Shown: piece after piece, positions 3,904 through 58,132 of the stretch
Position numbering within the stretch: the stretch's first letter is position 1
Layout: each line of letters starts with the position of its first letter
DNA from: an uncultured Eubacteriales bacterium
Lineage (GTDB): Bacteria > Bacillota > Clostridia > Christensenellales > CAG-138
NCBI GenBank assembly: GCA_902802575.1
Contig: CADCMN010000001.1
Location: 18,410 to 82,409 of the forward strand
DNA length: 64,000 nt
Direction of reading: 5' to 3'
Notes under the pieces: generated by a model
The model's database searches: none
Seen by the model: only the letters and a program-made list of their open reading frames with translations
What the model was told of the DNA's origin: nothing
Program-made: the position numbers and the translations under genes

Positions 3904-6900
3904 ATGAAAAAGAGAGTGATCGCGGCAGTTTTTGCCTTGCTCATTTGTATCATGGCATTATCCATAAACGCTTCGGACTCGTATGCCGATACGAATGGAC
4001 ATACGCGAGCAGAAGCCGTTGCATGGGCAAAAGGAATGGAAAACACAGCCCAAAAATACTATACCCAACCGACGACGTTGGAATGTATGGATTTAGCCGG
4101 TCATTACTATGCATATCTTGGTCACCCCGTCTATAACCTTGGTTGCCCAAATTATATTATTGCAAATACCAATAACAGAGCCGGCGAGAGGGCGTCAACC
4201 GATTTGGGATGGGCTATGTACGGCAGCGATACGGATCCCATGCCCGGAGACCTGGTTCTGTGGCAAAATATAAATTATGGTCATATTGGAATTGTGCTTG
4301 AAGTCTATTCAGATTCATTCCAATATATCGATTATAACGGAAACGGTGCGCACTGTGGCGGCGTGATCCGTTCCATAGAAGGGAAGCGTAGTTTTGACAG
4401 AATAATCCGGCCTGATTTTCCAGACAAATTGACCCTGGACGTCAACGGCTGGCTGGACGGGAAAGACGTGACCAACGTCTATGGCTACGGCACGTTCGAT
4501 ATGTACCTGGGCGGAACCCGGGTGAAGCAAAGCGAAGGCGATTATTGGAATCAGGAAGTCAAGACGGGCACATCCTACACGATAAAGAATGTCAAAGCCG
4601 CCGACGGCAAGGTGTTCGCCGGGTTCAAATCCGGCAAGTACAAGGGGACGGTGTCGCAGAACACCACCGTCGTCATGGAGTTTCGCACCCTCAACAGCAA
4701 GGAATGGGTCAAAAAGCATTCCCCGGCGCAGACAAAGTCCTTTGGCGGTCATACCTACAAGTATTATGCCGACAAGGTGACCTGGATCGAGGCGTTCAAT
4801 TATTGCCAAAGACTGGGCGGCCATCTGGTGGTGATCGATTCAAAGGAAGAGAATGCTTTCGTCAGCGGCCTGATCAAGGAAACCGTCTGGCTGGGCGCGG
4901 TGGATTCCCTGAAGGAGGGCACTTTCATTTGGCTCGACGGTAAAAACATGTCTTACAGCAATTGGGCGACCAACCAGCCGGACAACGACAAGAGCAATGC
5001 CGAGGGCGGGGAGGACTTCGTGTCCATGTATGGACCGGAAACCAGCCAGAGCGGCAAATGGAACGATGTGTACAGCTACGCCCAGTACGGTTTCGTCTGT
5101 GAGATCGACAAAGATGACAATCGCTATACTCTGGACGTGAACGGCTGGCTGGACGGGAAGGAACTGGACAACATCCAGGGCATCGGTACCTTCGATTCCT
5201 ATATCGACAACAAGAAGACTGAAAACGACATCTACGATTATTACAACACCATCCTGCCCAGCGGCACCAAGTATGAGTTCAAGGACATCAAGGCCGCCGA
5301 AGGATATGAGTATGTGGGCGTAAAAAGCGGCTCCCTTTCCGGCACCATGAACGGGAACGTCAAGATCGTGCTGGAGTTCCGCAAAAAGGCGGAACCGTCC
5401 TTCACCTTCCAGGTGGATACAAACAAGTTCGAGGTGGGGGAGACCTATGCCCAGATCGGGTATTTCAAGGTCTATTCCAATATAGATGTGAACCAGATAA
5501 AGCTGGTGGGTTGTGCGCTTTACGCCGCAGACGGCACATATTTGGCTGGCGATGAGGAAAGCGCCTATGCGCAGGGTGACCATCTGACCCATTATTTCCA
5601 CATCAGCGGCGATTCCGGGGAGCAGGATATCCGCTATGCCCTTTCGCCCAACACGAAGTATTACGTGCGCATGTACGTGATCTGCGAGGGAAAGAAGTAT
5701 TACAGCGACAAACAGGCGTTTACCACGAAGGGGTCGGCCGAACCGGCGCCGCCGCAGGTAGTGTATCACACGGTGACCTTCGATGCCGGTGGCTACGGCG
5801 TGTCCTCCGAGACCTCCCGACGGGTGGAGCACGGCAAACCCATCGGTGAGCTGCCGAAGGTGACGAAGACCGTGGATACCCATGAGCCGTTCTTTTTTCG
5901 CTGGGATACGCCGGCTGAGACCATCGTCACCTCGGATATTACCGTGACCGCCATTTGGAAGTGGGGGACGCCGCCTCCGATAACGCCGACGCCTACGCCG
6001 CGGACAGTGACGCCCACGCCCACCAAGAAAACCACGGTCACACCCACGCCCACCAAGAAACCTACGATCACACCGACGCCCCGGCCGGTGACGCCTGGGC
6101 CGACAACGTCCCAAAGCGCATATGTGACGATCAGCGGCTTGAAGAACAAGCTGAGCGTTTGGAAGGAGGCAAATAATCAGGGAGGGCGCCTTGGATACGC
6201 GTATAACGGCGACGTGTTTGAGCTGCTGGCGCTCAAGGGGGATTGGTACATGATCCGCTACAACGGCAAAATAGCGTATGTCACCGGCGAGCATGTGTTC
6301 GCGACCAATACCGATCTGGTGCCTCATTATAAGTCAGACCCTACCCCGACGCCCCGCGCATATGTGACGATCAACGGGCTGAAGAACAAGCTGAGCGTTT
6401 GGAAGGAAGCGAACAATGAATCAGGCCGACTGGGATACGCCTATAACGGCGATGAGTTCGATCTGCTGTCGGTCATAGGGGAATGGTATGAGATCCGATA
6501 TAACGGTATGACCGGATATGTGACCGGCGATCATGTGTATGCGACGAATGAAGCTCTCGTTCCGCATACGGACAAGAACTGGTGGACGTATACCCCGAAA
6601 CCGACGCCGAAACCCACGCCCAAGCCCACGCCGACCAGAGAAGTCTATGTCACGGAGCCTCCTGCTTTCGTCACAGAGCCGCCACCCGAGGTGTATATCA
6701 CTCAGCCGCCTGTCACGGAGGGCCCTGCCCAAAGCGTCATCACGGAACCGCCACAGCAGACGCCGTCCCCGGAATCTGATGTTCTCTTGCCCACGCTTTC
6801 TGCGGCGAATATGCCGACCGAGTCCGCCGACACTGGCGGGGCTGAGACGGAGCCGTCCCCGAAAGCGAGGAAGGACGCGGAGGCGACCGTCACGAAGCGG

Positions 6901-15321: not shown

Positions 15322-15398
15322 GGGGATGTAGCTCAGCTGGTTAGAGCGCTGTGTTCACATCGCAGAGGTCTAGGGTTCGAGTCCCTACATCCCCACCA
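15322..15398 (+). tRNA. tRNA-Val (anticodon CAC)
   Basis: Manual cloverleaf. Acceptor GGGGATG/CATCCCC, D stem GCTC/GAGC, anticodon stem CTGTG/CGCAG with loop TTCACAT, T arm TAGGG-TTCGAGT-CCCTA, discriminator A, encoded CCA. Confidence 0.9.
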
Positions 15399-15437
15399 AA
15401 GAAACAGCCACCCAATGCGAGACACCGATAAGGAAGT
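15375..15437 (+). repeat. left arm of interrupted long palindrome (tRNA-Val T-loop through 3' trailer)
   Basis: Inverted match to 25517..25582 in three identical blocks: gttcgagtccct (12), accaaagaaacagccaccc (19), accgataaggaagt (14). Confidence 0.85.
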
Positions 15438-15583
15438 AAACAAATCATATCGGGTTTCGCAGTAAGGGCAAAGGATTTCGGAGAGAGTGAAAAAGCTCTC
15501 TCCGATTTTCATGTTTGCACATTTGTGTTTCTGTGAAGATGCTGATATGCTGAAAGCAGAAAAACACAAAGGAGGTGTGAAAC

Positions 15584-15958
15584 ATGGAAAAGTACATTGT
15601 GGATGAGCAGAACGGATTGGAGTATGAATTGGTCGGGGATTATTACATCGTCGCCGGTGAGGACGAACCGCCGGCGAGACCGATCGGCGTATGGGGCACT
15701 ATGCGGCGCGACTATCTGAAACGGTACCGGCAATCGCTGTATTATCAACTGTTGCTTTCGGGCAAACTGAACGATCACCTTGCCGACATGGAAGAACAGG
15801 CGCAGGATTTGATGTGGACGCTGACAAAGCAGATGGCAAAAGCTGAAGGCGTGACTGAGGAATTGAAACGCAAAGATCAGATGGCGTGGGTAGGCGCGAT
15901 GAACAGCATTCAATCTCGCGTGAGAGAAATAGTTAATCATGAATTGATTTTCTCATAA
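15584..15958 (+). CDS. tnpV: TnpV family protein
   Basis: 124 aa. Family-typical IGVWG..R.YLK..R...Y..LLLSGKLN.HLAD..EQAQ..., AEGVTEELK..DQMAWVG.MN and ELIFS C-terminus. Confidence 0.8.
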   Translation: MEKYIVDEQNGLEYELVGDYYIVAGEDEPPARPIGVWGTMRRDYLKRYRQSLYYQLLLSGKLNDHLADMEEQAQDLMWTLTKQMAKAEGVTEELKRKDQMAWVGAMNSIQSRVREIVNHELIFS

Positions 15959-15970
15959 CAGCCGTATGAG

Positions 15971-16006
15971 AATGCTCGTCGGATTCGTACCCGGCGAGCA
16001 TTTTTC
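15971..16006 (+). terminator. intrinsic terminator after tnpV
   Basis: aatgctcg..cgagcatt hairpin followed by ttttt. Confidence 0.75.
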
Positions 16007-16016
16007 ACAGATTCGG

Positions 16017-17027
16017 TCAGGATTGCAGAGCTTTCAATACCTCTCCACTGTCGCCGTCGATACAGATGGAGTACGGCTTGATCTGCTTCGGGCAGATCGC
16101 TTCGTTATAGTTTAGACAGGCGTAGACCGCATTCGGGTTCTCCACGGTCAGCGCCCAGAAGGGGTATTTGATGATGATCGGCGTATTGGCGCCCACGCCG
16201 ATCTCTAAGTACAGAACGTGCTTTTCCTTGCACGATTCCAAAAAGGCGGCGTAGCGAGCCGACGCTTCGCGCCAACCGGCGTCTTCCACGAAGGTATCGT
16301 CGGCGCGCAGATTCATCGTGACCGCGCTCCCGTCGTCGGGGCAGCGCGGGATCAGTTCGTGGGGAAGACGCATGGAGATCAGCCGATCCCTCGGAATCTG
16401 AAAGACACCGTTCCCGTCCGGAATAAAGCGCTGGGCAGCCATTGCTTTGATTACCCAGTCCCGATTGTCGTACGTCTTGCCGTTTTTTCCGCTGATCGTC
16501 TGGAACAGCCCGTAATCCCCCTGCGTATAGAACAGGCGTTTTTTTTCGAAGCCCGCACGCTGAAACTGATGATCCACGTTGGTGGTGATCACGAAATAGT
16601 TTTTATCCTTGACCAACGCAAGCAGATTCTTATAAACCGGCTTCGGCGCGTCGATATAGCGGTTATAGTAGATATGCCGCGCCCACCATGCCCAGCGTGT
16701 TTCCTCGTCCGGGAACGGATAAAAACCACCGGAATACATATCCGTAATCCCAAACTGCTTTTTGAAATCGAAGAAAAACCGCTCGAAGCGTTCGCCGGAA
16801 TAGGTCAGTCCCGCGGCAGTGGACAGGCCCGCGCCCGCGCCGATCACGATCGCGTCGGCCGTCTCCAATTCGTGTTTCAGCAGGGCGATGTTCTCCTCAC
16901 GGCTGCCTGTTCCGTAGGAAAGTCCGGCGCGGAACGACCGCACTGCGGCAAGCCCCTTTTCGATTGTTTCAAGATACCCATTGGGCTGTTCATGATAAGA
17001 GCGCTTCATAGTATCTTCTGTCCTCAT
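16017..17027 (-). CDS. SIR2 family protein, SirTM-like (macrodomain-linked sirtuin)
   Basis: 336 aa (start may be Met-7 at 17009). IGAGAGLSTAAGL, ITTNVDHQF and YTQGDYGLFQ motifs. Overlaps the upstream macro gene by 20-38 nt. Confidence 0.8.
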   Translation of the reverse strand: MRTEDTMKRSYHEQPNGYLETIEKGLAAVRSFRAGLSYGTGSREENIALLKHELETADAIVIGAGAGLSTAAGLTYSGERFERFFFDFKKQFGITDMYSGGFYPFPDEETRWAWWARHIYYNRYIDAPKPVYKNLLALVKDKNYFVITTNVDHQFQRAGFEKKRLFYTQGDYGLFQTISGKNGKTYDNRDWVIKAMAAQRFIPDGNGVFQIPRDRLISMRLPHELIPRCPDDGSAVTMNLRADDTFVEDAGWREASARYAAFLESCKEKHVLYLEIGVGANTPIIIKYPFWALTVENPNAVYACLNYNEAICPKQIKPYSICIDGDSGEVLKALQS

Positions 17028-17796
17028 CCTTGAATACGTTAAAGATCACGCGGTCGATCTGCCCTTCGTGCGTTTGCATCCAATCCTCAACCGCTTGAAC
17101 CGCGATCTCGGCGGCACGCTGCTGTGGAAAGCCGAACACACCCGTGGAGATACAGCAGAACGCGACAGAGCGCAGCCCTTTTTCGGCGCACAGATTGAGC
17201 GTGTTGGTGTAGCAATCCGCTAAGTCTTGTTCCAACGCAGGGGTGAGCCGACCGGACACGATGGGGCCGACGATGTGGATCACTTTCTTGGCGGGCAGGT
17301 TATAGGCGTCCGTCAGCATGGGCACGGCGGTCGGCTGCTCGTAGCTGCTGCCGTATCTTGCCCGCAGCCGATTCATCTGCCGATTGCACTCCGCGCGAAG
17401 TTGGACACCTGCAAATGTATGAATACAGTTGTCGATGCAGGTGTGCATGGGCACAAAGCAGCCCAGCATCTGCGAGTTGGCGGCATTCACAATGGCGTCT
17501 ACAGAAAGGCGCGTGATGTCGCCCTGCCAGATGGAAAGATAATCCCGAATAACGGGAATCTCCTTGACCGTTACGATCCCTTTTTCGGCATTCCGTTCGA
17601 TCAGATATTCGTCTTGGATCGCAAGCACCTCGTCCGGCAGCGCCTTCGGCAGACGAATGTTCATCAGAGAGCGAAGAATCCTTCGCTTTCCTTCCGAATC
17701 GGAAGGCGTCTGCAGGTCTCGGTATGTACCGGAATCTTCTTTGAAAGCCTCCACCAGATAGTCGAGGCGCTGATCGTTTGTCATTTTCTCATTCAT
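16990..17796 (-). CDS. macro domain protein (protein-ADP-ribose hydrolase, MacroD-like)
   Basis: 268 aa. WQGDITRLSVDAIVNAANS, IHIVGP and SVAFCCISTGVFGFP motifs. Confidence 0.85.
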   Translation of the reverse strand: MNEKMTNDQRLDYLVEAFKEDSGTYRDLQTPSDSEGKRRILRSLMNIRLPKALPDEVLAIQDEYLIERNAEKGIVTVKEIPVIRDYLSIWQGDITRLSVDAIVNAANSQMLGCFVPMHTCIDNCIHTFAGVQLRAECNRQMNRLRARYGSSYEQPTAVPMLTDAYNLPAKKVIHIVGPIVSGRLTPALEQDLADCYTNTLNLCAEKGLRSVAFCCISTGVFGFPQQRAAEIAVQAVEDWMQTHEGQIDRVIFNVFKDEDRRYYEALLS

Positions 17797-17801
17797 GTGC
17801 G

Positions 17802-18428
17802 TTACCTCTTTTCCACAGCGCTAACAGGACAGACCTCCATACAGTTTCCGCAATGCAGGCAGTGCGCCTGATCGATCACCAACGGTACGCTATCCACACA
17901 AATGCACTGCTGCGGACAGACCGGTACACAGGATCGACACCCGATGCAGGCGTCCGTGATGAAATATCCCTCAGTTTTTCTCTCTGCGCCGCCGAAGGTG
18001 AAGGACGCCCGCTCAATCGGCTTCTTGGAAAGATCGAACCATTCACCGCTGCCCTCATAGATGTGGAAAACGGTCAGCGCGTGCATGGACTCCTCTGTGG
18101 GATAGATCTCCCGCATATACGGGTTCTTTTCAAAAAGCATCGATATCGCTTCGTAACCGAGTTCTCTGACCTTTCCTCGAATGGAAACCGCAACAGAGGT
18201 CATAGTCGTTTCGCCCTTTATTGCGGTCAAAGCAAGAAAGCCACGCTTCTTGAGACGGTCATAGAAGCCCTTGCCTTTTGCTGTGAGGAAATATAATCCG
18301 TTTCCATCGCTGTCCATCATGTCGATGGCGGCGGTCACAGGCAGGCCTTCGTCATCTACCGTTGCGACAACAGCCGTATGGATTTCATTTACCAAGTAGG
18401 CGAGATAATCTTTCGTATTCATATCCAT
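17802..18428 (-). CDS. pyridoxamine-5'-phosphate-oxidase-like flavoprotein fused to 2x[4Fe-4S] ferredoxin domain
   Basis: 208 aa. N-terminal split-barrel-like region. C-terminal CIGCRSCVPVCP and CLHCGNCMEVCP. Confidence 0.75.
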   Translation of the reverse strand: MDMNTKDYLAYLVNEIHTAVVATVDDEGLPVTAAIDMMDSDGNGLYFLTAKGKGFYDRLKKRGFLALTAIKGETTMTSVAVSIRGKVRELGYEAISMLFEKNPYMREIYPTEESMHALTVFHIYEGSGEWFDLSKKPIERASFTFGGAERKTEGYFITDACIGCRSCVPVCPQQCICVDSVPLVIDQAHCLHCGNCMEVCPVSAVEKR

Positions 18429-18476
18429 GACTTTCGTGCAAAGAACGCCGGACGACGCTTTTGAAGTCCCTCGTTC

Positions 18477-18917
18477 TCATTCTCCATTTGCGATCCTTTC
18501 CAACGCGCCGTTTTTCAAGTCCTCGATGGTATATCGCTTCATCTCGTCCTCCATCGCGCATTGGATCGCTTTCAGCTTGTCATCCAAAAGCGCATGAATG
18601 TTACGTCCCACGGGACAATCCGGGTTAGGACTTTCATGGAAATGGAACAGATCGCCGTTTTCTACCGGCTCAATCGCTTCGTATACATCATAAAATGTGA
18701 TATCGGCAAGCGGTTTTGTGATGATTATGCCGCCGGTGCCTCGCAGAACTTCGATCAATCCCGCACTTTTCAACTGCGTCAGAATCTTGCGGATGATCAC
18801 GGGATTGGTGTTGATCGACCCTGCAAGAAAGTCACTTGTAACCTTATATTCATCCTTAAAGACTTCCACACAAGTGAAGATATGCAGCGCCACCGTGAAT
18901 CTGCTTGAAATCTGCAT
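18477..18917 (-). CDS. Rrf2 family transcriptional regulator
   Basis: 146 aa. N-terminal MQISSRFTVALHIF winged-helix signature. Confidence 0.8.
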   Translation of the reverse strand: MQISSRFTVALHIFTCVEVFKDEYKVTSDFLAGSINTNPVIIRKILTQLKSAGLIEVLRGTGGIIITKPLADITFYDVYEAIEPVENGDLFHFHESPNPDCPVGRNIHALLDDKLKAIQCAMEDEMKRYTIEDLKNGALERIANGE

Positions 18918-18932
18918 GAATACCGCCTCCTC

Positions 18933-19970
18933 TTAAAAGCATCTCTGCTTACGTTCGCTCTTGCAGCGCTCGATGTTCCCGCAACGATAGCAAAGCTCGT
19001 TGTCGCACATACCGCCGTTTTCAAAGTACGACAGGATGTTGTTCACGGTCGTCTCAGCGATGTTGTTCAGCGCTTCCTCGGTCAGAAACGCCTGATGCGA
19101 CGTCACGATCACGTTCGGCATGGAGATCAGCCGGGACAGCAAATCGTCATTCAGAATATGTCCGGAGCGATCTTCGAAGAAAATATCCGCTTCCTCCTCA
19201 TATACATCGAGACACGCCGCACCGATCTTGCGTGCCTTGATGCCGTCCAACAGCGCTTCCGCGTCGATCAGCCCGCCGCGGGAGGTGTTGAGGATTACGA
19301 CACCCTTTTTCATCTTCGCGATTGCATCAGCATCGATCATGTGCCGCGTTTCGTCTGTCAGCGGACAGTGCAGGGAGATCACGTCGCTCTTTGCAAACAG
19401 CTCGTCGAGCGTAACATATTCGATCCCGCTGTCTGCTGCCGGAAATCGGTCGTAGGCGATCACATGCATTCCAAAGCCGCGGCAGATATCAATGAAGATG
19501 CGGCCGATCTTGCCCGTACCGATCACGCCGATCGTCTTACCATGAAGATCGAAGCCGGTCAACCCTTTTAGTGAGAAATTGAACTCCCGCGTACGGTTGT
19601 ACGCCTTATGGATGCGGCGAACGGAAGTTAACAGAAGCGCCATCGCGTGCTCCGCAACCGCATAGGGCGAATAGGCGGGTACGTGAACGACGTGCACCTT
19701 GCCGAATGCGGCGCGGACATCCACGTTGTTATACCCCGCCGAACGCAGCGCGATCAGCTTGACCCCGTTTTTATAGAGCTTGTCGATCACGGCGGCGTTT
19801 GCCGTGTCGTTGACGAAGATGCAGACAGCGTCGCAGCCCGCCGAGAGCGCGGCGGTATCCCCGTTCAATTTGGTTTCAAGAAAGCGGAACTGCATGTCAT
19901 GCAGTTTTCCATATTTCTCGAATGACGGCTTGTCATATGGCTTTGCATCATAGAATGCAACTTTGATCAT
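18933..19970 (-). CDS. ldhA: D-isomer-specific 2-hydroxyacid (D-lactate-type) dehydrogenase with Cys-rich C-terminal tail
   Basis: Start chosen at MIKVAFYD (GGAGGG RBS 7 nt upstream). GVIGTGKIGR NAD motif. C-terminal CDNELCYRCGNIERCKSERKQRCF extension. Confidence 0.85.
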   Translation of the reverse strand: MIKVAFYDAKPYDKPSFEKYGKLHDMQFRFLETKLNGDTAALSAGCDAVCIFVNDTANAAVIDKLYKNGVKLIALRSAGYNNVDVRAAFGKVHVVHVPAYSPYAVAEHAMALLLTSVRRIHKAYNRTREFNFSLKGLTGFDLHGKTIGVIGTGKIGRIFIDICRGFGMHVIAYDRFPAADSGIEYVTLDELFAKSDVISLHCPLTDETRHMIDADAIAKMKKGVVILNTSRGGLIDAEALLDGIKARKIGAACLDVYEEEADIFFEDRSGHILNDDLLSRLISMPNVIVTSHQAFLTEEALNNIAETTVNNILSYFENGGMCDNELCYRCGNIERCKSERKQRCF

Positions 19971-20084
19971 GCACATCCCTCCGATTTGCTTTACATATAC
20001 GATTTCGCCGGACATATGCGGGCATACGTCCGGCGCTTCCTAATTGTATTCTACCGCAATTTGGCTGTAATTACAAGTATTACA

Positions 20085-20858
20085 TCAAAACTTGCCATTC
20101 TGGTTCTGCCACGTATCCTTGTCCGCGATTGTCTCCATGACGTCCCAGTGCTCAGCGATCTTGCCGTTCTCTACTCTCCACAGATCATAGTAAGAAGTAG
20201 GCACTCCGCCGAAGGTTCCTTCGGAAACCGCAAGAACATAATCGCCCTGTGCCAGCACCTGATGCACGGTGGTATAGATCATCTGGATGCCTGCTTCGGC
20301 AAGAGATGCCAGAGCTGCGCCGAGACCGGAGAGCCCATCAGCAATGCCGGTATTGTGCTGGATATACTTGTCGTCGTCGAAGTATTCAGGCGTTTTCTGC
20401 GGGTTATTTCCCTGCATCACGTCATACAGGAAGTTCTTGACCAACTCGCGGTTTGCTTCGGTCTTGTCAAGATCCTTCACGGAAGCGACATTATCGATCT
20501 GCGTATGACCGGAGGGGTTCGGTTCAGCTTTGGCAGCGAGGTTATCCCAATGCTCGGCGATCTTCCCATCTGCATCGAAGCGGAAGATGTCGAACGCAAC
20601 CTGCTCACCCATACCTGCGAAGTTGTAAACGGTCTGCAGGAATACCTTGTCGCCGTCCTCGTAGGCGCGGATGTTGTTAACTGTGGTCTTCACAGGAGCG
20701 GAGCCAAGATAGGCAACGCTGCCGACAAATGCATCCGCACCGGTGCCGTAGGCTAGGTTGTGCTGGATATAGCCGGGAGCCAGAAGTTCCTTCGCGGTCT
20801 CGGTGTCGCCGGTAACGAAGCAGTTGATCAGAGTAAGGGCTTTTTCGATGTTTGTCAT
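20085..20858 (-). CDS. tandem SnoaL/NTF2-like fold protein
   Basis: Start at MTNIEKAL (AGGAGG RBS). Two similar halves, each with ..YIQHN.. and ..IAEHWD.. motifs. Confidence 0.65.
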   Translation of the reverse strand: MTNIEKALTLINCFVTGDTETAKELLAPGYIQHNLAYGTGADAFVGSVAYLGSAPVKTTVNNIRAYEDGDKVFLQTVYNFAGMGEQVAFDIFRFDADGKIAEHWDNLAAKAEPNPSGHTQIDNVASVKDLDKTEANRELVKNFLYDVMQGNNPQKTPEYFDDDKYIQHNTGIADGLSGLGAALASLAEAGIQMIYTTVHQVLAQGDYVLAVSEGTFGGVPTSYYDLWRVENGKIAEHWDVMETIADKDTWQNQNGKF

Positions 20859-21322
20859 GGTAGTGACCTCCTGAAAGATATTTGATGTAACCGTCGTGAT
20901 TTCATCTGGATGCAATATAGCACATCCTTGTTGTAATGTCAATAGTTACATCTAAAATTTTTTGGTTTTTTGTTCTGTGTTGCTTCAAGCTATTTTTGAG
21001 GATTGTCTAAATGAAAAAGGAGAGCGGCATTGCAACACTCATTGTCGAATCCTGCAAAGGAGTTATATCGGGGTTTAAGGGGACACCCTTACGAACGGAT
21101 TTTGCGGCAAATGCCAGCAAAATCCAATGCTGGCTAATCCTCAACAGATCATCCTCTTTCTTCAGCGCCTTTCGGATCGGGTTTATCATGGGTATTATGC
21201 GCTGAAGGCGGATTAGAGGCGGCAGAAACGATCTCTTTCGCTTCCGCGCATGGCAGAATAGGATGCGAGCAAGTTACGAGTCCGAATAAACGGACTTGCA
21301 TTCTAAGTGAAAAATAAAGTTC

Positions 21323-21352
21323 TTGCTTTTTCGGCAAGGTGTGCCGTATAAT
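21323..21352 (+). promoter_or_regulatory. candidate sigma-70 promoter
   Basis: TTGCTT, 18 nt, TATAAT, inside a ~1.1-kb non-coding lower-GC stretch. Confidence 0.35.
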
Positions 21353-21358
21353 CGTATT

Positions 21359-21538
21359 GTCGAAAGCGGAACCGCCGAGACAAATTGAAAACTGAATAAC
21401 GCAAAACAGTTTCTAATCGCGCAAGCGGGGCAGGATCCGCAAGGACTGAAAAACCACCAAGCACCGTACGAAATTGGATTGAGATCGGATAGGAATATCC
21501 GCCGTCTCAGTTCATTTTGTACGGTGCTTTTTCTTTTC
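21359..21538 (+). ncRNA. candidate ~180-nt structured small RNA (family unknown)
   Basis: Lies downstream of the promoter above. Ends in a 10-bp helix AGCACCGTAC/GTACGGTGCT (21460-21469 / 21519-21528) followed by TTTTTCTTTT. Has internal GCGG..CCGC hairpins and no convincing ORF. Confidence 0.3.
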
Positions 21539-22072
21539 TCGGCAGCCGGACGATCAAAGTATTTTTGAACGATGTCGTTTTTCGGCATTCCAGCCCCCTG
21601 TAACTAAACAGAAAGGTCAAAAGGAGAGGCAACTAAATGCCGCAAAAATATATTTTCAAAAACCACCGCCCAAAAACGCAAAAATGTTCCCCAAAGAAAG
21701 TAGAGGGACTTATTCAGAAGCACCTTGAAAACCGAATATTGAAAACGCACAAATGAAGGATTTATGAACAGTTCCTCTGAAACTGCAAAAAACGGCTGCA
21801 ATTTCGCATTGGGTATGAGAGGCAGAGAATTGTGAAGAAACTGCAAATCCTTTCCAATTCACCTCTGAAATTTCACCAATGCACAGTGAAAGGATTTTGA
21901 ATGCGACCGGCAAGAGAGAACGCCGGTGCAGATACACCGTTTCCCCCGATCAAGGAAACGAGACCGTTGCCGCTTCGGGACGCCGGAGCGTTAAGAACTG
22001 AAATCGACGAAAGAGAGGTACAAACCATGAATCCTTACAACCAAACAAACAACCTTGCGGAGGCATCCCGAC

Positions 22073-22918
22073 ATGAAAGCATCCGGTGAAAAAGTAACGA
22101 ACATTGCGATCGATCAGATTCATCCGTTTCCGAATCATCCGTTTCAGGTGAACGACGACGAAGCAATGGAGCGCCTGAAAGAAAGCATTTCGCTCAACGG
22201 CGTGTTGACGCCCGCAACGGTACGGCAGTTGCCGGACGGATCGTTTCAGATGGTTTCCGGTCATCGGCGCATGGCGGCGTGTAAAGCGCTGGGTATGGAG
22301 AAGATGCCGGTGATCGTTAGGGAGATGGACGACATCACCGCAACGCTGACGATGGTGGATTCCAACCGGCAGCGCGAATCGCTGCTGCCGAGCGAGAAGG
22401 CGAACGCCTACAAAATGCGGCAGGACGCCTTGAAAAGCCGTTCCGTGGGACAAGTTGTCCCACAGGGCGGACGGACGACCGAGCAGATCGGAAATGAGAC
22501 CGGCGAAAGCTACAAGACCGTGCAGCGGTTTATCCGGCTGACGAAGCTCATCCCACCGCTGCTGCAAATGGTGGACGAAGGCAAGATGGGCATGATTCCG
22601 GCGGTCGAGCTTTCCTACCTTCCGACAAAGGAACAGGAGGCGGTGCTGTCCGCCATCGAAGCAGAGCAGAGCGTCCCGTCGCTCGCACAGGCGAAAGCGT
22701 TGCGAAAGAGCTATGTCGAGGACGAGTTCACCGACGATACCCCGCTTTGCGTTCTGTCTGACAGCAAGTGGAAACCGGCGGAGAAGCTGACGCTGCCTAT
22801 GGAGCGCTTTGCAAAGTTCTTTCCGAAAGACGCCACGCCGAAGCAAATGGAGCAGGCGATGCTGGAGGGCTTGGAACTGCGGCAGAAGCGGATTCGGTCG
22901 CGGCAGCAGGAACGGTAA
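22073..22918 (+). CDS. ParB N-terminal (ParB/Srx) domain protein
   Basis: ORF 22055..22918; ATG at 22073 has a GGAGG RBS. IDQIHPFPNHPF and VSGHRRMAACKALG motifs. Confidence 0.8.
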   Translation: MKASGEKVTNIAIDQIHPFPNHPFQVNDDEAMERLKESISLNGVLTPATVRQLPDGSFQMVSGHRRMAACKALGMEKMPVIVREMDDITATLTMVDSNRQRESLLPSEKANAYKMRQDALKSRSVGQVVPQGGRTTEQIGNETGESYKTVQRFIRLTKLIPPLLQMVDEGKMGMIPAVELSYLPTKEQEAVLSAIEAEQSVPSLAQAKALRKSYVEDEFTDDTPLCVLSDSKWKPAEKLTLPMERFAKFFPKDATPKQMEQAMLEGLELRQKRIRSRQQER

Positions 22919-23103
22919 TCGGAGATGGATGGGGCTTCCTTCTTTGGTAGGTATTTGGCATGGGGGACGCTGCTCCCCCGTACCGGATCGATCCGATGCA
23001 GCCATGGCTGCGTTGGATTAGCGAGCATTGAATTTTGCCGGCATTCGGCCAAATTCGTAACGTAAGGGAGTTCCCTTAAACCCCAGCATATGACAAAAAA
23101 GGA

Positions 23104-23515
23104 GATCAAACACATGAAACGCACCAATAAAATCACGTTCCGGCTATCGGATCAAGAGCTTGCCCGGTTCAAGCAGCAGGTCAAGGAAAGCGGATTGTTT
23201 CAGGAAACATATCTGCGGTTTCTGATCGAGGGCTTTTGCCCAAATCAGCTTCCTCCGCCGGAGTTCTGGAAAGAAATGGGAGGTTTTTTCAAAGCGTTGG
23301 GCAATCTGGATGAATTGGCAAAAATCGCGTATCGCACCGGAAACATCCATTACGAGGAAATCCGGGAAATGTATCGGGACATAGCCGAGCATATTCACCG
23401 GATCGAGGATGAAATCTTTCATCATGTTCCTATTGACCTGCGGAGCATTCCAAAGAAAGACCGTCCGAAACAGAAGTACAAAGCACCCGCGAAACAGGAG
23501 GAAGAACAGGCATGA
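23104..23515 (+). CDS. MobC-like / ribbon-helix-helix mobilisation accessory protein
   Basis: ORF 23090..23515; ATG at 23104 follows AAGGAG. KITFRLSDQELARFK..YLR pattern. Confidence 0.55.
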
Positions 23516-23715
23516 AAGATATGAACGGAAAAGCAGATGATTGCATCGTTTCGCTGATCCCTTATCTGTACGACAGCATGGAAGCGGCGACGCAGCCGGA
23601 GACCTTTACCGTGCAGATCGGGAAAACGGAATATGTGGTCAACACCCATTTCAATCCGAACGGTCGGCAAACCATGTTTCAGCAAATGAAGGACTTGATT
23701 CTGCGGCAAGATTGA
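23512..23715 (+). CDS. tnpW: TnpW family small protein
   Basis: 67 aa. IGKTEYVVNTHF....GRQT......KDLILR pattern. Start overlaps upstream stop (ATGA). Confidence 0.65.
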   Translation: MKDMNGKADDCIVSLIPYLYDSMEAATQPETFTVQIGKTEYVVNTHFNPNGRQTMFQQMKDLILRQD

Positions 23716-23737
23716 CAGGCGGAGCCGGGTGCAGTAG

Positions 23738-25468
<1,731 letters not shown>

Positions 25469-25516
25469 CGGAAACGGAGCAGCCCTTTCGGACTGCTCCG
25501 CCCCTCACACAAGAAA

Positions 25517-25582
25517 ACTTCCTTATCGGTATCGCCCTAATCGGGTGGCTGTTTCTTTGGTATTTTTGGGAGGGACTCGAAC
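25517..25582 (-). repeat. right arm of interrupted palindrome (inverted copy of tRNA-Val T-loop and trailer)
   Basis: Its reverse complement reads gttcgagtccct-cccaaaaat-accaaagaaacagccaccc-gattagggcgat-accgataaggaagt. Confidence 0.85.
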
Positions 25583-28812: not shown

Positions 28813-29856
28813 ATGATGGAACAGAAAACGGTGAAACTGACCAAGCTGAGCAAATGCGCGGGCTGCGGCGCCAAGGTGGGCGCGGGCGTGCTGGCTAAAT
28901 TGCTGCAGGACATCAAGGTGCATTCCGATCCCAATCTGCTGGTGGGATTCGATCACAGCGACGATGCGTCGGTGTACAGGATATCCAACGAGTTGGCGCT
29001 GGTGCAGACGGTGGATTTCTTCCCGCCCATTGCAGACGATCCCTATCTCTTTGGGCAAATCGCGGCCACCAACGCCCTGTCCGACGTATACGCCATGGGC
29101 GGGGAGCCAAAGCTCTGCCTCAACATCATGGCGGTGCCGGAGAAAATGCCCATGGATGCGGTCCACGACATCCTGCGGGGGGGCTACGACAAGGTGTACG
29201 AGGCAGGGGCGCTGATCACCGGCGGTCACAGCATCCATGACGACGAACCGAAGTATGGCCTGGCCGTCACGGGATTCGTGCATCCCGACCATGTGCTGAC
29301 CAATTCCGGCGCGCGCCCCGGGGATGTGCTGTTCCTCACCAAGCCCCTGGGCATCGGCATCCTTAGCACGGCGGCCAAGGCGGATATGGTATCAGAGGCG
29401 GGGGAGAGGCGCATGTTTGCGCTCATGACCACCCTCAACCGGGCAGCCCGCGACGTGATGGTCAAATATGAGGTCCATGCCTGTACGGATGTGACGGGTT
29501 TCGGCCTCATGGGCCACGCCTTGGAGATGATGGAAGGGAGCGGCGTGCAGGCAGTCATCGACACCGGGGCGCTGGATCTGATCCCGGAAGCCAAGGAGCT
29601 GGCCAGATATGGGCTGATCCCCGCCGGAGCCTATCGCAACCGCGCCTTTGCGGAGAAGGCGGTGGCGCTGGATGGGATCGAGCTATGCGTCCAAGACATG
29701 CTGTTCGACCCGCAGACCTCCGGCGGACTGCTGATCGCCTGCGCGCCTCGGGATGCGGAGCGGATGTTCCGGGAGCTGCAACAAACCGTTCCCAGCGCCC
29801 AGCGCATAGGAATGGTACAGGCGTATGAGGGCGGGAAGCGGATCTTCCTTCGCTGA
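28813..29856 (+). CDS. selD: selenide, water dikinase (selenophosphate synthetase), Cys form
   Basis: 347 aa. LTKLSKCAGCGAKVG N-terminal active-site loop (Cys, not a TGA codon). AIR-synthase-like body. Confidence 0.9.
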   Translation: MMEQKTVKLTKLSKCAGCGAKVGAGVLAKLLQDIKVHSDPNLLVGFDHSDDASVYRISNELALVQTVDFFPPIADDPYLFGQIAATNALSDVYAMGGEPKLCLNIMAVPEKMPMDAVHDILRGGYDKVYEAGALITGGHSIHDDEPKYGLAVTGFVHPDHVLTNSGARPGDVLFLTKPLGIGILSTAAKADMVSEAGERRMFALMTTLNRAARDVMVKYEVHACTDVTGFGLMGHALEMMEGSGVQAVIDTGALDLIPEAKELARYGLIPAGAYRNRAFAEKAVALDGIELCVQDMLFDPQTSGGLLIACAPRDAERMFRELQQTVPSAQRIGMVQAYEGGKRIFLR

Positions 29857-30999
29857 TCAAGCCAAGGCGCCAATGGCGGCAATGGCGGCGTCCACGTCCG
29901 CCTCGGTGTTGGCGTAGCCCAGGGAAAAACGGACCGTACCCCGGGGGAAGGTCCCGAGGCTCCTGTGGGCGGCGGGGGCGCAATGCAGACCGCAGCGGAT
30001 CAGGATGCCGAAGCGCTGCTCCAGGGCAAAGGAGACGGCGGCGTTGTCCTGATCTACAAAGTCCAGCGAGAAGACGCCCACGCGGTGTTCAAGGCCTTTG
30101 GGACCGCACAGACGGACCCTGGGGATATCCCGGATGCCGTTGATGAACCGGCGCATCAAAAGGAGCTCGTGAGCCCGCAGAGAATCCATGCCGACCTCGG
30201 AAACATAGGCCATGGCGGCCTCCCAGCCATAGATGCCGGGCAGATTCATGGTGCCGGACTCGAACCGGTCGGGGAGGTATTCCGGCAGCAGCTCGCTGTC
30301 AGAAGCGCTGCCCGTGCCGCCGGCGATGAGGGGCGACAGCTGCCGCGCCATTTCATCGGTCAACAGTAGAGCGCCGATGCCCGATGGCCCCAGCAGCCCC
30401 TTGTGACCCGGAACGGACAGGGCGCTGAGATGAAAGCGTTCAAAGTCCAGGGGAAAATGGCCGGCGGTCTGGGCCCCGTCCAGCACGAAGGGGATGCCGT
30501 ACTGAGCGGCGATGGCGCCGACAGCTTCCGCATCCTGCACGGAACCGGCCACATTGGAACCGTGGGCCATGAGGATCAGGCGGGTGTTGGGCCGAATGAG
30601 GGCGTGGATATCATGGGGGTCGATGAACCCCTCCGCATCCGCCCGGACGCGGTCAAAGCTCACCTCCGGCAGCTGCAGCAAAGGCCGCATGACGGCGTTG
30701 TGCTCCATGCTGCTGACGATCACGTGATCCCCCGGGCGCAGATACCCTTTGATGATCAGGTTCAGACCGTAGGTGTTGCCGGGGGTCAGGATCACATGGG
30801 TGGCCTTCTCAGGAAAATGAAAGAAGCCCTTGAGCTGCTCCCGGAGGGACAGGGTCACCAGCTCCGTTTCCTGGGCGTTCCGGTAGACGGAGCGGTTGAG
30901 GGGCGCGCCCACCTCCGTGAGATAGCGCACCATAGCCTGAGCCACGGCTTCCGGTTTGGGGAAGGACGTGGCGGCATTGTCAAGATAGATCGTATTCAT
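29857..30999 (-). CDS. class V aminotransferase, cysteine desulfurase / selenocysteine lyase-like
   Basis: 380 aa. MNTIYLDNAATSFPKP start and a SVPGHKGL PLP-lysine context. Its stop abuts the selD stop (TGA|TCA). Confidence 0.85.
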   Translation of the reverse strand: MNTIYLDNAATSFPKPEAVAQAMVRYLTEVGAPLNRSVYRNAQETELVTLSLREQLKGFFHFPEKATHVILTPGNTYGLNLIIKGYLRPGDHVIVSSMEHNAVMRPLLQLPEVSFDRVRADAEGFIDPHDIHALIRPNTRLILMAHGSNVAGSVQDAEAVGAIAAQYGIPFVLDGAQTAGHFPLDFERFHLSALSVPGHKGLLGPSGIGALLLTDEMARQLSPLIAGGTGSASDSELLPEYLPDRFESGTMNLPGIYGWEAAMAYVSEVGMDSLRAHELLLMRRFINGIRDIPRVRLCGPKGLEHRVGVFSLDFVDQDNAAVSFALEQRFGILIRCGLHCAPAAHRSLGTFPRGTVRFSLGYANTEADVDAAIAAIGALA

Positions 31000-31068
31000 G
31001 GATACAGGATATCACAGACGATCCTAAAAGTCACATAGATTTTTTCCATACATCAGAAAGGAGAGAGC

Positions 31069-31983
31069 ATGCTCGATATCAGCGTTCGACAGTTGGAGGT
31101 ATTCGTGGCCACCGCGGAGTATTGCAGCTTCACCAGGGCCGCGGAGGACCTGCATCTCACCCAATCCACCGTCAGCATGCATATACGCACGTTGGAGGAG
31201 GTGCTCCATGCCTGCCTCATTGAACGAGGCGCCCGCAAAAAGGTCATTTTGACGGAGGAGGGGAAGCGGGTCTATTCCATCGCCAAGGATATCCTTTCCC
31301 GGATGGAAGCCCTACAGGACCATGGGGCGGAGGGGGCGGAAGAACCGATCCGCATCGGAACGTCCACCGTGCCCGCCCAATATCTGCTGCCCAAGCTCCT
31401 GTCCGGCTTTCTGAAAAAGTATCCCCAAGCCAGGTACATCCTGCGGCGCGGCGACAGCGAACATGTGCTGGACTGCATCCAAAAGGGCGAGGTGCGCATA
31501 GGGCTGGTCGGCTACAAAAACGCCGATCGATCCTTGATCTTTCAGGAAATTGCACGGGACCGCCTGGTGCTGATCACGGAAAACAGCGAGGCGTTTCGCT
31601 CCATGCAGGCAGCGGGAAAAAATGGCCAGGACTTGCTGGGCTTCCCCATGATCGCACGGGAGGCAAGCTCCGGCACCCAGCACGCCGCCGACCTTTTTCT
31701 GCAGCGGCTGGGCGTGAAAGCCCCCAATATCGTGGCCCGGATGGATAACCCGGAGAGCATCAAGACGAGCGTGGCCGAGGGCGTCGGCGTGTCCATCGTC
31801 TCCGATCTGGCCGTTTCGGCGGAGGTCAGGTCAGGCAAGCTCCTGGCCTTTCCGTTCACGCCGCGATCGGAGGAGAGGAAGCTGTATATCGTCTGGCCAA
31901 AGGACGCCCTGCTGACCACCGCGGAACTTAGATTCGTACAGCATGTGAAGACCCAAACCGGCGCTATTCTTTCATCGAAATAA
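31069..31983 (+). CDS. LysR family transcriptional regulator
   Basis: 304 aa. N-terminal wHTH (LEVFVATAEYCSFTRAAEDLHLTQSTVSMHI) and a LysR substrate-binding domain. Confidence 0.85.
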   Translation: MLDISVRQLEVFVATAEYCSFTRAAEDLHLTQSTVSMHIRTLEEVLHACLIERGARKKVILTEEGKRVYSIAKDILSRMEALQDHGAEGAEEPIRIGTSTVPAQYLLPKLLSGFLKKYPQARYILRRGDSEHVLDCIQKGEVRIGLVGYKNADRSLIFQEIARDRLVLITENSEAFRSMQAAGKNGQDLLGFPMIAREASSGTQHAADLFLQRLGVKAPNIVARMDNPESIKTSVAEGVGVSIVSDLAVSAEVRSGKLLAFPFTPRSEERKLYIVWPKDALLTTAELRFVQHVKTQTGAILSSK

Positions 31984-32087
31984 CCGATTTTTTGAAGCAT
32001 TCGATCTGTAATTCCCATTCGATTTTTGCCGAAAGAACGCCTATAATGGGAAGGAAGAATCCGATCCGTCGGATAAGGGAGGTATGT

Positions 32088-33191
32088 ATGAAAAAGATAA
32101 ACTGGACGGTCGTATTGGCCGGCGTGGTGGTGGGCGTGGCCGCGCTGATCCTGAGCGGTTTGGGAAATCCTGCGAACATGGGCTTCTGCATCGCCTGCTT
32201 CGAGCGGGACATCGCCGGCACGCTGGGGCTCCATTCCGCCGCTGTGGTCCAATATATGCGGCCTGAGATCATCGGCCTGGTGCTGGGCGCCATGATAATG
32301 GCGCTCGTCAAGGGCGAGTTCCGCGCCAAAGGCGGTTCCTCTCCCGCGACGCGGTTCCTGCTGGGCGCTTTGGTCATGATCGGGGCGCTGGTATTCCTGG
32401 GCTGCCCGCTGCGGATGGTCCTGCGGTTGGGCGGCGGCGACCTCAATGCGCTCCTTGCGCTGGTGGGCTTCGCGCTGGGCATCTTTGTGGGCACGCTGTT
32501 TTTGAAGCGGGGCTTCTCCCTGAAGCGGAGCTACACCCTGGCCGCGTCGGAAGGGTTCGTGCTGCCTGCGGTGCTTCTGATCGCAGGAGCGCTGTTCCTG
32601 ATCGTTCCGTCGCTGTTCAGGATCAGCACCGAAGGGCCCGGCTCCCAGCATGCGCCGTTCCTGATCGCGCTGCTCATCGCCGCGGTGGTGGGCGCCCTTG
32701 CCCAGCGCGCTCGGCTGTGCATGGTGGGCGGTCTCAGGGACGCCATGATGTTCAAGGACTTCAAGCTTCTGTATGGGTTTGCGGCTATTTTGATCGTCAC
32801 TATCCTGGGCAAGCTGGCGTTGGGCGGCCTTGGCTGGGGCAAGCTCACGCCCTTCAAGCTGGGCTTTGCCGAGCAGCCCGTGGCCCACAGCAACCATGTG
32901 TGGAGCTTCCTGGGCATGGCGTTGGCGGGCTGGGGGTCCGTGCTTCTGGGCGGTTGTCCCCTTCGGCAGCTGATCCTTTCGGGCGAGGGCAACGGTGATT
33001 CTGCCGTGGCCGTGTTCGGCATGATCGCCGGCGCCGCCATCTCCCACAACTTCGGCCTGGCCGGCAAGGGCGGCGCGGCCGCCGCGGAGGCTGTCTCGAC
33101 GAACGCCAAGGTCGTGATCCTGTGCGGCTTCGTGATCCTGCTGGCCATTTCCCTTATCAACCTGCCCAAAGGGGCAAAAAAGCAGGCCTGA
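32088..33191 (+). CDS. yedE: YedE family putative selenium/sulfur transporter
   Basis: ORF 31992..33191; ATG at 32088 follows AAGGGAGG. Polytopic, with GFCIACFERD and GGCPLRQ Cys motifs. Confidence 0.8.
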   Translation: MKKINWTVVLAGVVVGVAALILSGLGNPANMGFCIACFERDIAGTLGLHSAAVVQYMRPEIIGLVLGAMIMALVKGEFRAKGGSSPATRFLLGALVMIGALVFLGCPLRMVLRLGGGDLNALLALVGFALGIFVGTLFLKRGFSLKRSYTLAASEGFVLPAVLLIAGALFLIVPSLFRISTEGPGSQHAPFLIALLIAAVVGALAQRARLCMVGGLRDAMMFKDFKLLYGFAAILIVTILGKLALGGLGWGKLTPFKLGFAEQPVAHSNHVWSFLGMALAGWGSVLLGGCPLRQLILSGEGNGDSAVAVFGMIAGAAISHNFGLAGKGGAAAAEAVSTNAKVVILCGFVILLAISLINLPKGAKKQA

Positions 33192-33216
33192 ACGGCGCAG
33201 AAGGAGGTTATTTGCT

Positions 33217-33420
33217 ATGGTAGACGCGCGTGGTTATTCCTGCCCCATCCCGGTGGTCATGGTGCAGCGGGCGGTGAAGACGGATGATCCCAAGAGCTTG
33301 ACGGTGCTGGTGGACGAGCAGGTCTGCGTGGAGAACGTGACCCGCTTTGCCAACGCCGCCGGCTACAAGGTGACGGTCAGCCGGGATGGCGACGACTATC
33401 GGATGGAACTCACAAAATGA
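33217..33420 (+). CDS. yedF: TusA/YedF-like sulfurtransferase-fold selenium metabolism protein
   Basis: 67 aa. DARGYSCPIPVV active-site Cys-Pro motif. Confidence 0.75.
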   Translation: MVDARGYSCPIPVVMVQRAVKTDDPKSLTVLVDEQVCVENVTRFANAAGYKVTVSRDGDDYRMELTK

Positions 33421-33659
33421 AGGAGTACGTTGCCACCTTTCACACCCATCTGGCTGCATTGATGACCAGCCGAAATCTGAAAGCTGCGGGCGTTCCGGCG
33501 CAAATGATGCCCGTGTTCAGGAAGCTCAGCTCCTCCTGCGGCACCTGCGTGGTATACAGGGCTCAAAGCCCCTGCCTGGCGCAGATGGACGAGGATGTGG
33601 AAGGCGTGTACGAGATCATCGGCAACGAGGAGTACAGTCTTCTGTACGAAAACGAATAA
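33417..33659 (+). CDS. DUF3343-like small protein
   Basis: 80 aa. Start overlaps the yedF stop (ATGA). This family is commonly linked to Se/S carrier genes. Confidence 0.6.
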   Translation: MKEYVATFHTHLAALMTSRNLKAAGVPAQMMPVFRKLSSSCGTCVVYRAQSPCLAQMDEDVEGVYEIIGNEEYSLLYENE

Positions 33660-58075: not shown

Positions 58076-58089
58076 GGATCGAAACACAC

Positions 58090-58118: not shown

Positions 58119-58132
58119 TGCTGTCCATCGCC

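Follow-up and report, generated by a model that had tools for sequence, protein, structure and literature searches.

A zinc macrodomain and a class M sirtuin at the end of a redox operon on a TnpX-like transposon: a candidate reversible ADP-ribosylation switch without GcvH-L and LplA2

Introduction

What does a class M sirtuin (SirTM) modify when the genes for GcvH-L and LplA2 are missing from its locus? This question is raised by two overlapping minus-strand genes, encoding a zinc-dependent macrodomain (Zn-Macro) and a SirTM, in a stretch of 64,000 nucleotides (nt), here called the window, from contig CADCMN010000001.1 of an uncultured Eubacteriales bacterium. To date a single SirTM substrate, GcvH-L, has been identified (PMC11490716, PMC4518038), and SirTM and Zn-Macro genes occur in three contexts named by Ariza 2024: the pair alone, the extended operon and the fusion (PMC11490716). 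Lone pairs with unknown targets had been described by Rack 2015 (PMC4518038) and again by Ariza 2024, where the structure of a lone-pair macrodomain was solved and lone-pair macrodomains were found to remove ADP-ribose from PARP1 modified on Glu/Asp and not from GcvH-L (PMC11490716).

The answer favoured here, to which a probability of roughly 0.7 is assigned, is that the pair is a reversible mono-ADP-ribosylation switch of the class lacking GcvH-L and LplA2, which ends an Rrf2-controlled redox operon carried by a 10.1-kb transposon. The original prediction made for this DNA had presented the pair as an orphan with an unassigned modification target, and had seen in it a likeness to toxin-antitoxin or defence systems.

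All coordinates are window positions, and SirTM residue numbers are counted from the start codon at 17009. Comparisons of gene neighbourhood are based on the 80 closest species-representative relatives, whose sirtuins are 55-73% identical to that of the window, with flanks of up to 10 kb; the host's own genome lies outside this sample, in which the best identity is 73%. Linkage counts are restricted to those 63 related loci whose upstream sequence spans 3 kb or more, and they register a Macro gene within 4 kb of the SirTM gene and an Rrf2 or PNPOx gene within 5 kb. Pfam scans covered the plausible open reading frames (ORFs) of the window, four large surface-protein ORFs and some short ORFs lying outside the scan.

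Identity and integrity of the gene pair

The two genes have the following positions.

16990-17796, minus strand: Zn-Macro, predicted zinc-dependent MacroD-type protein-ADP-ribose hydrolase (268 amino acids; overlaps the start of the SirTM gene by 20 nt)
16017-17009, minus strand: SirTM, class M sirtuin, predicted protein mono-ADP-ribosyltransferase (330 amino acids; the ORF reaches an upstream ATG at 17027)

The macrodomain protein matches the Pfam family Macro (E 5e-32) and, over residues 5-267, the NCBIfam equivalog NF003163 “protein-ADP-ribose hydrolase”, with a score of 307.8 bits against a cut-off of 272. Its best solved relative is MorMacro from M. oralis (8rsi, E 3e-71), followed by the S. 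aureus (5KIV/8RSL, about 1e-57) and S. pyogenes (8RSM, 5e-49) proteins. The Cx4HxC Zn-loop, which in Zn-Macros stands in place of the Gly-rich catalytic loop (PMC11490716), is present as C113-FVPM-H118-T-C120; the NAAN motif (as VNAANS) and the Dx3H dyad (D122-NCI-H126) both align with MorMacro, and in a sequence alignment residues 5-85 correspond to the N-terminal three-helix-bundle extension of MorMacro and SauMacro. Under the motif definitions of PMC11490716 (Cx4HxC, NAAN and Dx3H), the sequence of the protein therefore displays every feature by which Ariza 2024 defines a Zn-Macro.

The sirtuin is matched in a PDB sequence search by the S. pyogenes SirTM structure 5a3a (E 1e-51) and by the fungal macro-SirTM fusion 8RSN (E 7e-24), and it is about 40% identical to S. 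pyogenes SirTM (SpySirTM) over 259 residues. Since a Pfam search gave no family at E<=0.01, its identity rests on PDB, NCBIfam (weak) and fold searches. An AlphaFold 2 model, with a mean confidence score (pLDDT) of 88.4, was compared by Foldseek with known structures: the top match is 5a3a (E 2e-24, template-modelling score 0.89), 8RSN is second and ordinary sirtuins follow, with no defence SIR2 in the top 50. The motifs named in the original prediction (GAGAG, TTNVDH and QGD) are found as the NAD-binding motifs GAGAGLS and TTNVDH and as QGDYG, and its identification of a macrodomain followed by a class M sirtuin is borne out. The catalytic residues are likewise retained: N144, Q163 and R235 align with Asn118, Gln137 and Arg192 of SpySirTM, which were shown by mutagenesis to be necessary (PMC4518038), and all three are invariant. 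A Gln (QG) replaces the catalytic His of the HG motif, a substitution which suggests that the protein would act as an ADP-ribosyltransferase without deacylase activity. The activities of both proteins are predicted from those of their characterised homologues.

The SirTM gene probably starts at the second ATG, at 17009, which gives 330 residues. This start is favoured because homologues have 330 amino acids, because gene calls on identical elements agree with it and because GAGGA lies 11 nt upstream; with it, the two genes share 20 nt instead of 38 nt. The longer 336-residue ORF has no exact match on record; the macro protein did have one. When the two genes are compared with a copy about 86% identical in nucleotides, each has a ratio of nonsynonymous to synonymous substitution rates (dN/dS) of 0.14, which indicates that both are under purifying selection.

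The small domain of the sirtuin departs from that of the characterised enzymes. In the SpySirTM and Foc1Mfs1 structures this domain has four Cys residues holding a structural zinc, which is a general sirtuin feature and does not define the class. Three of the four zinc-binding Cys are gone from the window protein (CSQHC...CPEC in S. pyogenes has become TISGK...CPDDG), and the zinc-ribbon region (residues about 170-225) contains a 17-residue insertion. The zinc cysteines are absent from 72 of the 80 relatives and retained, as Cx3C...Cx2C, in the other 8; the Cys-less small domain of the window protein is still modelled confidently by AlphaFold 2. Their loss is not mentioned in the main texts of Rack 2015 or Ariza 2024.

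A member of the lone-pair class

The absence of gcvH-L and lplA2 near the pair, reported in the original prediction, was confirmed over a wider range. Pfam scans of the window ORFs gave no GCV_H and no BPL_LplA_LipB family, and phmmer searches with E. coli GcvH and LplA gave no match at E<=10 in the full six-frame translation of the window and no match in 91 related loci with flanks of up to 10 kb. Neither gene occurs within 10 kb of the pair in any of the 80 closest species-level relatives (0/80). [quoted passage not shown]

The family is large and widely spread. More than 8000 protein clusters match the sirtuin, the best 120 all being at least 70% identical, and at least 576 species representatives encode a relative. 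The best 80 relatives include Clostridia, Lachnospiraceae, Erysipelotrichaceae, Selenomonas, Pseudoscardovia, Desulfovibrio, Leptotrichia, Succinivibrio, Endomicrobia, Spirochaetales and two archaea, and come mostly from rumen or gut samples. Cultured carriers include Butyrivibrio fibrisolvens 16/4, Johnsonella ignava and Eggerthia catenaformis.

The redox operon and its candidate operator

The pair forms the distal end of an operon of six minus-strand genes, in the order SnoaL, D-2-hydroxyacid dehydrogenase, Rrf2, PNPOx-ferredoxin, Macro and SirTM. The four genes upstream of the pair are the following.

20085-20858, minus strand: tandem SnoaL-like (NTF2-fold) protein, first operon gene (257 amino acids; Pfam SnoaL_2 9e-21, two stretches)
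18933-19970, minus strand: D-isomer-specific 2-hydroxyacid dehydrogenase, D-lactate-dehydrogenase-like (345 amino acids; Pfam 2-Hacid_dh_C 7e-56)
18477-18917, minus strand: Rrf2-family transcription regulator (146 amino acids; Pfam Rrf2 2e-30)
17802-18428, minus strand: fusion of a PNPOx-like FMN-binding split barrel with two [4Fe-4S] motifs (208 amino acids; 5 nt upstream of the macro gene)

The intergenic gaps are, in order, 69-114, 15, 48 and 5 nt, followed by the overlap within the pair. No terminator-like site lies between the genes, and on the minus strand the operon contains just one such site, a weak stem of 5 bp in the macro gene. The original prediction of an operon with Rrf2, ferredoxin-flavoprotein and dehydrogenase genes, ending in the pair, accordingly holds. 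The SnoaL start codon (ATG at 20858) is preceded by AGGAGG, and gene calls also give 257 residues. The dehydrogenase ORF runs to 20015, and its 345-residue start was chosen on identical elements; its scores in the VanH-type NCBIfam models are under their cut-offs, and the gene is missing from the otherwise collinear cassettes L016, L042 and L050. Beyond the Pfam domains the dehydrogenase ends in a Cys-rich tail (18933-19010, CDNELCYRCGNIERCKSERKQRCF), and the orthologue in L064 has such a tail as well. The flavoprotein-ferredoxin matches PNPOx_N (1e-8) and several Fer4 families, and its eight Cys are kept in at least 90% of 21 orthologues that adjoin a SirTM gene.

The cassette is a mosaic whose breakpoint is the macro/PNPOx junction. 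In comparison with L006, the macro-SirTM segment has about 86% nucleotide identity and the PNPOx, Rrf2 and dehydrogenase genes have 98-99%; in comparison with L098 the pattern is reversed. Because the two patterns of divergence are opposite, the macro-SirTM pair recombines as one block, apart from the upstream genes.

The sites that may govern transcription of the operon are listed below.

20914-20942, minus strand: sigma-70-type promoter, TTGACA-17-TATATT with an extended -10 TG (11/12 matches, best site in the region)
20930-20952, either strand: candidate operator palindrome 1, GATGTAA-N9-TTACATC with 1 mismatch, overlapping the -35 box
20884-20906, either strand: candidate operator palindrome 2, immediately downstream of the -10 box
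20064-20086, either strand: candidate operator palindrome 3, in the spacer between SnoaL and dehydrogenase, where it overlaps a weaker promoter-like site (20076-20048)

The promoter lies 55 nt upstream of the SnoaL start and its sequence is conserved in distant loci. The 23-bp palindrome occurs three times in the window, compared with 0.08 copies expected by chance, and 19 times in 14 of the 80 related loci, compared with about 0.1 in shuffled DNA; most of the sites in relatives are within about 1 kb upstream of an Rrf2 gene. In an alignment of upstream regions it is nearly invariant among collinear cassettes in which the coding sequences share only about 70% identity. This co-occurrence suggests that the palindrome is the operator of the operon's own Rrf2 protein, which would probably be a repressor.

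In the Rrf2 proteins that adjoin SirTM genes, H94 and C101 are invariant and H108 is present in 90%. Since there is one invariant Cys together with conserved His, and the 3-Cys Fe-S motif is missing, thiol modification or metal seems a more likely signal for the regulator than a classical Fe-S cluster. Two specific assignments were considered and rejected: an Fe-S-sensing Rrf2 of the IscR/NsrR type, given the one conserved Cys and the missing 3-Cys motif, and the HypR equivalog, which scored 45 bits against a cut-off of 180 bits.

Recurrence of the redox neighbourhood

The association of the pair with redox genes extends to many of its relatives. A Macro gene is found near SirTM in 52 of the 63 loci and stands directly upstream in 44. 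An Rrf2 gene is nearby in 22 loci, a PNPOx-type gene on the same strand as SirTM in 17, and one or the other in 30; with a single exception, these neighbouring Rrf2 and PNPOx genes share the strand of SirTM. Genes that also recur nearby encode NADPH-dependent FMN reductases, NAD(P)H-binding proteins, HxlR regulators, enzymes of the radical S-adenosylmethionine (radical-SAM)/SPASM type, zinc-type dehydrogenases, aldo-keto reductases, old yellow enzyme (OYE)-type flavin oxidoreductases, the last near the pair in 4 related loci, and glutathione peroxidase. This redox theme agrees with the OYE and luciferase-like partners in the staphylococcal SirTM operon (PMC4518038).

An Enterococcus casseliflavus plasmid (RefSeq NZ_CP068131; L105 5824-6876) carries Rrf2 beside a series of genes for a short-chain dehydrogenase/reductase, a protein-ADP-ribose hydrolase, Sir2, a PNPOx-family protein and a NUDIX hydrolase, so that the last two directly follow the sirtuin; the NUDIX enzyme might clear away free ADP-ribose that the macrodomain releases. 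On a Roseburia plasmid (NZ_CP135163; L104 1686-5882) the pair comes after genes for an ACGX-repeat peptide, a radical-SAM/SPASM maturase, a nitroreductase and a 4Fe-4S protein, and a radical-SAM/SPASM gene adjoins the pair in 6 GTDB loci (for example L081 7928-8992).

A search of the literature for sirtuin, macrodomain and Rrf2 together returned nothing relevant, and Rrf2, ferredoxin, PNPOx, SnoaL and transposons are unmentioned in Rack 2015 and Ariza 2024. New here are the redox operon, probably operated by Rrf2, with its defined operator, the linkage to such genes in about half of the loci, the carriage by a transposon, and the zinc-less small domain of the sirtuin.

The transposon and its insertion site

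The six-gene operon is the cargo of a TnpX-like transposon, with the following features.

15414-25541: mobile element, 10,128 bp, with imperfect terminal inverted repeats (core ACCGATAAGGAAGT; left 15414-15437, right 25517-25541)
15322-15398, plus strand: tRNA-Val(CAC) in the host flank (ARAGORN; Rfam tRNA)
15584-15958, plus strand: TnpV (Pfam TnpV 2e-39), at the element's left end and convergent with the SirTM gene
22055-22918, plus strand: ParB_N/HTH_ParB protein (Pfam ParB_N 8e-18)
23090-23515, plus strand: NikA-like putative relaxosome accessory protein (Pfam E 1.3e-4, 22.4 bits, under the 27-bit cut-off; weak on related contigs too)
23512-23715, plus strand: TnpW-like small protein (Pfam E 3.4e-5, 23.9 bits, just under the 25-bit cut-off)
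23756-25468, plus strand: TnpX-like large serine recombinase (Resolvase, Recombinase, Zn_ribbon_recom and DUF4368; gene callers start at 23789, giving 559 amino acids)

Comparison of contigs places the ends of the element to the base, at 15414 on the left (AATGCGAGACACCGATAAGGAAGT...) and at 25541 on the right (...ACTTCCTTATCGGTATCGCCCTAAT): homology to the copies in other flanks (L006, L096, L097 and L099) stops at these positions. The copies in L096, L097 and L099 are at least 99.8% identical and have different flanks, and the identical macro protein is found on at least 21 contigs. A derivative without 21025-25207, from ParB through most of the recombinase, is present in L006-L011, and L098 has the cargo without the transposon genes. 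The original prediction had called the element mobilisable; that it is mobile is evident from the near-identical copies, and mobilisation in the strict sense finds no such backing, the Pfam scan of the element's ORFs having given no relaxase family and only the weak NikA-like match, with no search made for an oriT. Rfam models gave only tRNA on the element, including its gene-poor 1.1 kb (20943-22054). That region holds only short ORFs with no Pfam matches, and the sibling element L001 has a DUF6076 gene at the corresponding position.

The element lies 15 nt downstream of the tRNA-Val gene, in the loop of the hairpin that follows it, with AAGAAACAGCCACCC on its left and GGGTGGCTGTTTCTT on its right; the host DNA that flanks it (15399-15413 and 25542-25557) is an inverted repeat and then a T-run. 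Flanks of the same kind are found at two other insertion sites, namely the ends in L097 and positions 5640-5660 and 11601-11625 of L006. The preferred place of insertion seems to be the loop of a terminator-like hairpin, which in the window is the hairpin following tRNA-Val.

A sibling transposon (L001 9809-11443, also in L002-L005) has MatE and LysR cargo and an intact SirTM gene, 89% identical, with the macro gene absent. In L001 the SirTM gene is flanked by a 61-residue TnpV fragment and a full TnpV, and homology to the window ends exactly at the SirTM start codon.

Elsewhere in the window

Three further observations concern other parts of the window. A likely selenium/sulfur utilisation cluster (28813-33659) contains genes for a SelD-like protein of the AIR-synthase family, a class V aminotransferase, a LysR regulator, a YedE-like membrane protein for sulphur transport and a small carrier protein for Se/S. 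A single ORF of 799 residues (51035-53434) joins an ABC/ECF-type ATPase, about 270 low-complexity residues rich in Pro, Arg and His, and a TruA pseudouridine synthase; the stretch in the middle probably represents a different gene translated out of frame. The ORF for the anaerobic ribonucleotide reductase NrdD (56011-58140) matches the Pfam model up to position 469 of 562; its last 110 or so residues look out of frame, which may reflect a frameshift or a sequencing error.

Interpretation of the locus

In the favoured reading a protein would receive ADP-ribose on an acidic side chain from the SirTM, with NAD+ as the donor, and would lose it again through the zinc macrodomain. The operon would be transcribed from the one strong promoter bracketed by two of the palindromes, the third copy preceding the dehydrogenase gene, and would be repressed by its own Rrf2 protein until release by a redox, thiol or metal signal. 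Writer and eraser would thereby be made together with the redox enzymes during stress. As for the target, the leading guess is that it belongs to the same regulon, the adjacent flavoprotein being one such protein.

Several facts weigh against this reading. In half of the related loci both Rrf2 and PNPOx are missing from the vicinity of the pair, so that the cassette is a common and not a universal context. The 11 of 63 loci in which SirTM has no macro gene within 4 kb are odd for a strict writer/eraser unit. The small domain of the sirtuin is, by its sequence, without zinc cysteines, unlike those of the characterised enzymes, and the assignment of the operator to Rrf2 rests solely on co-occurrence.

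A bolder form of the proposal is that the Rrf2/PNPOx-ferredoxin/Zn-Macro/SirTM cassette constitutes a second, GcvH-L-independent extended SirTM operon, switched on by a thiol- or metal-sensing Rrf2 repressor, in which the sirtuin would reversibly modify a product of the regulon itself, most plausibly the adjacent flavoprotein-ferredoxin. This is a tentative proposal that is more probably wrong than right. If it is true, such an operon would tune electron flow or detoxification in anaerobes, and, being a self-contained module, it would be able to spread on transposons across phyla and into archaea.

The alternatives to the favoured reading differ in what they make of the partnership between the two genes. 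An ordinary SirTM system working in trans, in which the host's lipoylated GcvH, or a GcvH-L with a lipoate ligase, is encoded elsewhere and is modified as in Staphylococcus and Streptococcus, would be in keeping with GcvH-L as the only known substrate and with the 64 kb to which the inspected host DNA extends. It is nevertheless considered improbable: the absence of GcvH and LplA extends from the window to the surroundings of the 80 relatives, the Zn-Macros of lone pairs do not demodify SpyGcvH-L and modelled GcvH(-L) complexes are poor (PMC11490716), and the same element occurs in several hosts or sites, with close relatives across phyla and in archaea. Because the element and its relatives are so widely distributed, a self-contained module or a universal target fits better than a dedicated carrier. 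The existence of deletion derivatives and rearranged copies might also be taken to mean that the pair consists of passenger genes without a role, a decaying remnant carried along by the transposon. The low dN/dS of both genes, the intactness of every catalytic motif, the identical macro protein on many contigs and the occurrence of the family in hundreds of species speak against this, and it is rated the least likely of the explanations considered.

A toxin-antitoxin or anti-phage module, with SirTM as a toxic ADP-ribosyltransferase or NADase and the macrodomain as its antidote, the two stabilising or defending the mobile element, was suggested in the original prediction by analogy with DarTG. 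An eraser gene that precedes and overlaps the writer gene, on a mobile element, would fit such a module, yet the overlap is a trait of the family, described likewise for the non-toxic S. aureus operon and for that of S. pyogenes (PMC11490716). Neither protein matches any PADLOC model, there is no DarT domain, the macrodomain is of the MacroD/Zn type, and Gln stands in place of the catalytic His of NAD-consuming sirtuins; the fold matches are to SirTM and then to canonical sirtuins. Intact SirTM genes without a macro gene are found on 8 contigs of the sibling transposon as well as in the 11 loci mentioned above, the neighbours are redox enzymes and redox regulators and not defence genes, and a relative occurs in 4 of 2.9 million viral contigs, in three of them at the contig end, the family being almost absent from phage records too. 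The toxin-antitoxin or defence interpretation is not supported, and is regarded as very unlikely, on nearly the same footing as the passenger explanation.

The locus gives handles on the targets of lone pairs, in the form of a conserved set of candidate partners from the same operon (above all Rrf2 and the PNPOx-ferredoxin) and of a defined operator and promoter. Natural variants also lend themselves to comparison, namely complete cassettes, cassettes that lack the dehydrogenase, SirTM genes unaccompanied by a macro gene, and cargo free of the transposon. The module is also very common in gut and rumen anaerobes and horizontally mobile, which weakens the view of SirTMs as mainly a feature of pathogens.

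Comparison with known systems

The locus shares individual components with known defence systems. Like DarTG, it has a macrodomain beside or related to an NAD-using enzyme, the writer being a sirtuin in the window and not DarT (DUF4433). The SIR2 fold and the use of NAD are common to it and to the SIR2 anti-phage systems (Thoeris ThsA, DSR, SIR2-HerA and SIR2-Argonaute), from which it differs in that the operon is without SLOG/TIR, HerA, Argonaute or the large C-terminus of DSR and in that the catalytic His is replaced.

Tn4451 carries TnpX, TnpV, TnpY, TnpZ and TnpW. The window element resembles Tn4451/Tn4453 in its large serine recombinase with DUF4368, its TnpV and its TnpW-like protein, and also in its discrete ends and identical copies at different sites. 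It differs in that no TnpZ/Mob relaxase was found, the recombinase is at the end opposite TnpV, the insertions are in hairpin loops, and the cargo is a redox/ADP-ribosylation operon instead of a resistance gene.

The fungal Mfs1 fusion of macrodomain and SirTM (PDB 8RSN) has the same two domains in the same order, which in the window are encoded by separate overlapping genes in a bacterial host. In S. aureus and S. pyogenes the extended operon consists of GcvH-L, Zn-Macro, SirTM, LplA2 and, in addition, OYE and LLM (luciferase-like) oxidoreductases. Common to it and the window are a homologous writer and eraser with the N/Q/R residues kept, overlapping genes, an association with flavin oxidoreductases and, presumably for both systems, an association with redox stress. 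In the window, by contrast, scans found no GcvH-L, LplA2, OYE or LLM, the zinc site of SirTM is lost, the locus is mobile, and the partners are SnoaL, the D-2-hydroxyacid dehydrogenase, Rrf2 and the PNPOx-ferredoxin.

The closest counterparts are the lone pairs, represented by MorMacro (PDB 8RSI-8RSK) and by those of Enterococcus faecalis and Treponema pedis. They have the same order of overlapping genes, macro and then SirTM, without GcvH-L and LplA2, and they share with the window pair the Zn-loop, NAAN and Dx3H motifs and the Gln-for-His substitution in SirTM, the target being unknown in all of them. What distinguishes the window pair is its setting, within a six-gene redox operon that is probably operated by Rrf2 and that is carried by a serine-recombinase transposon, together with a SirTM without zinc cysteines.

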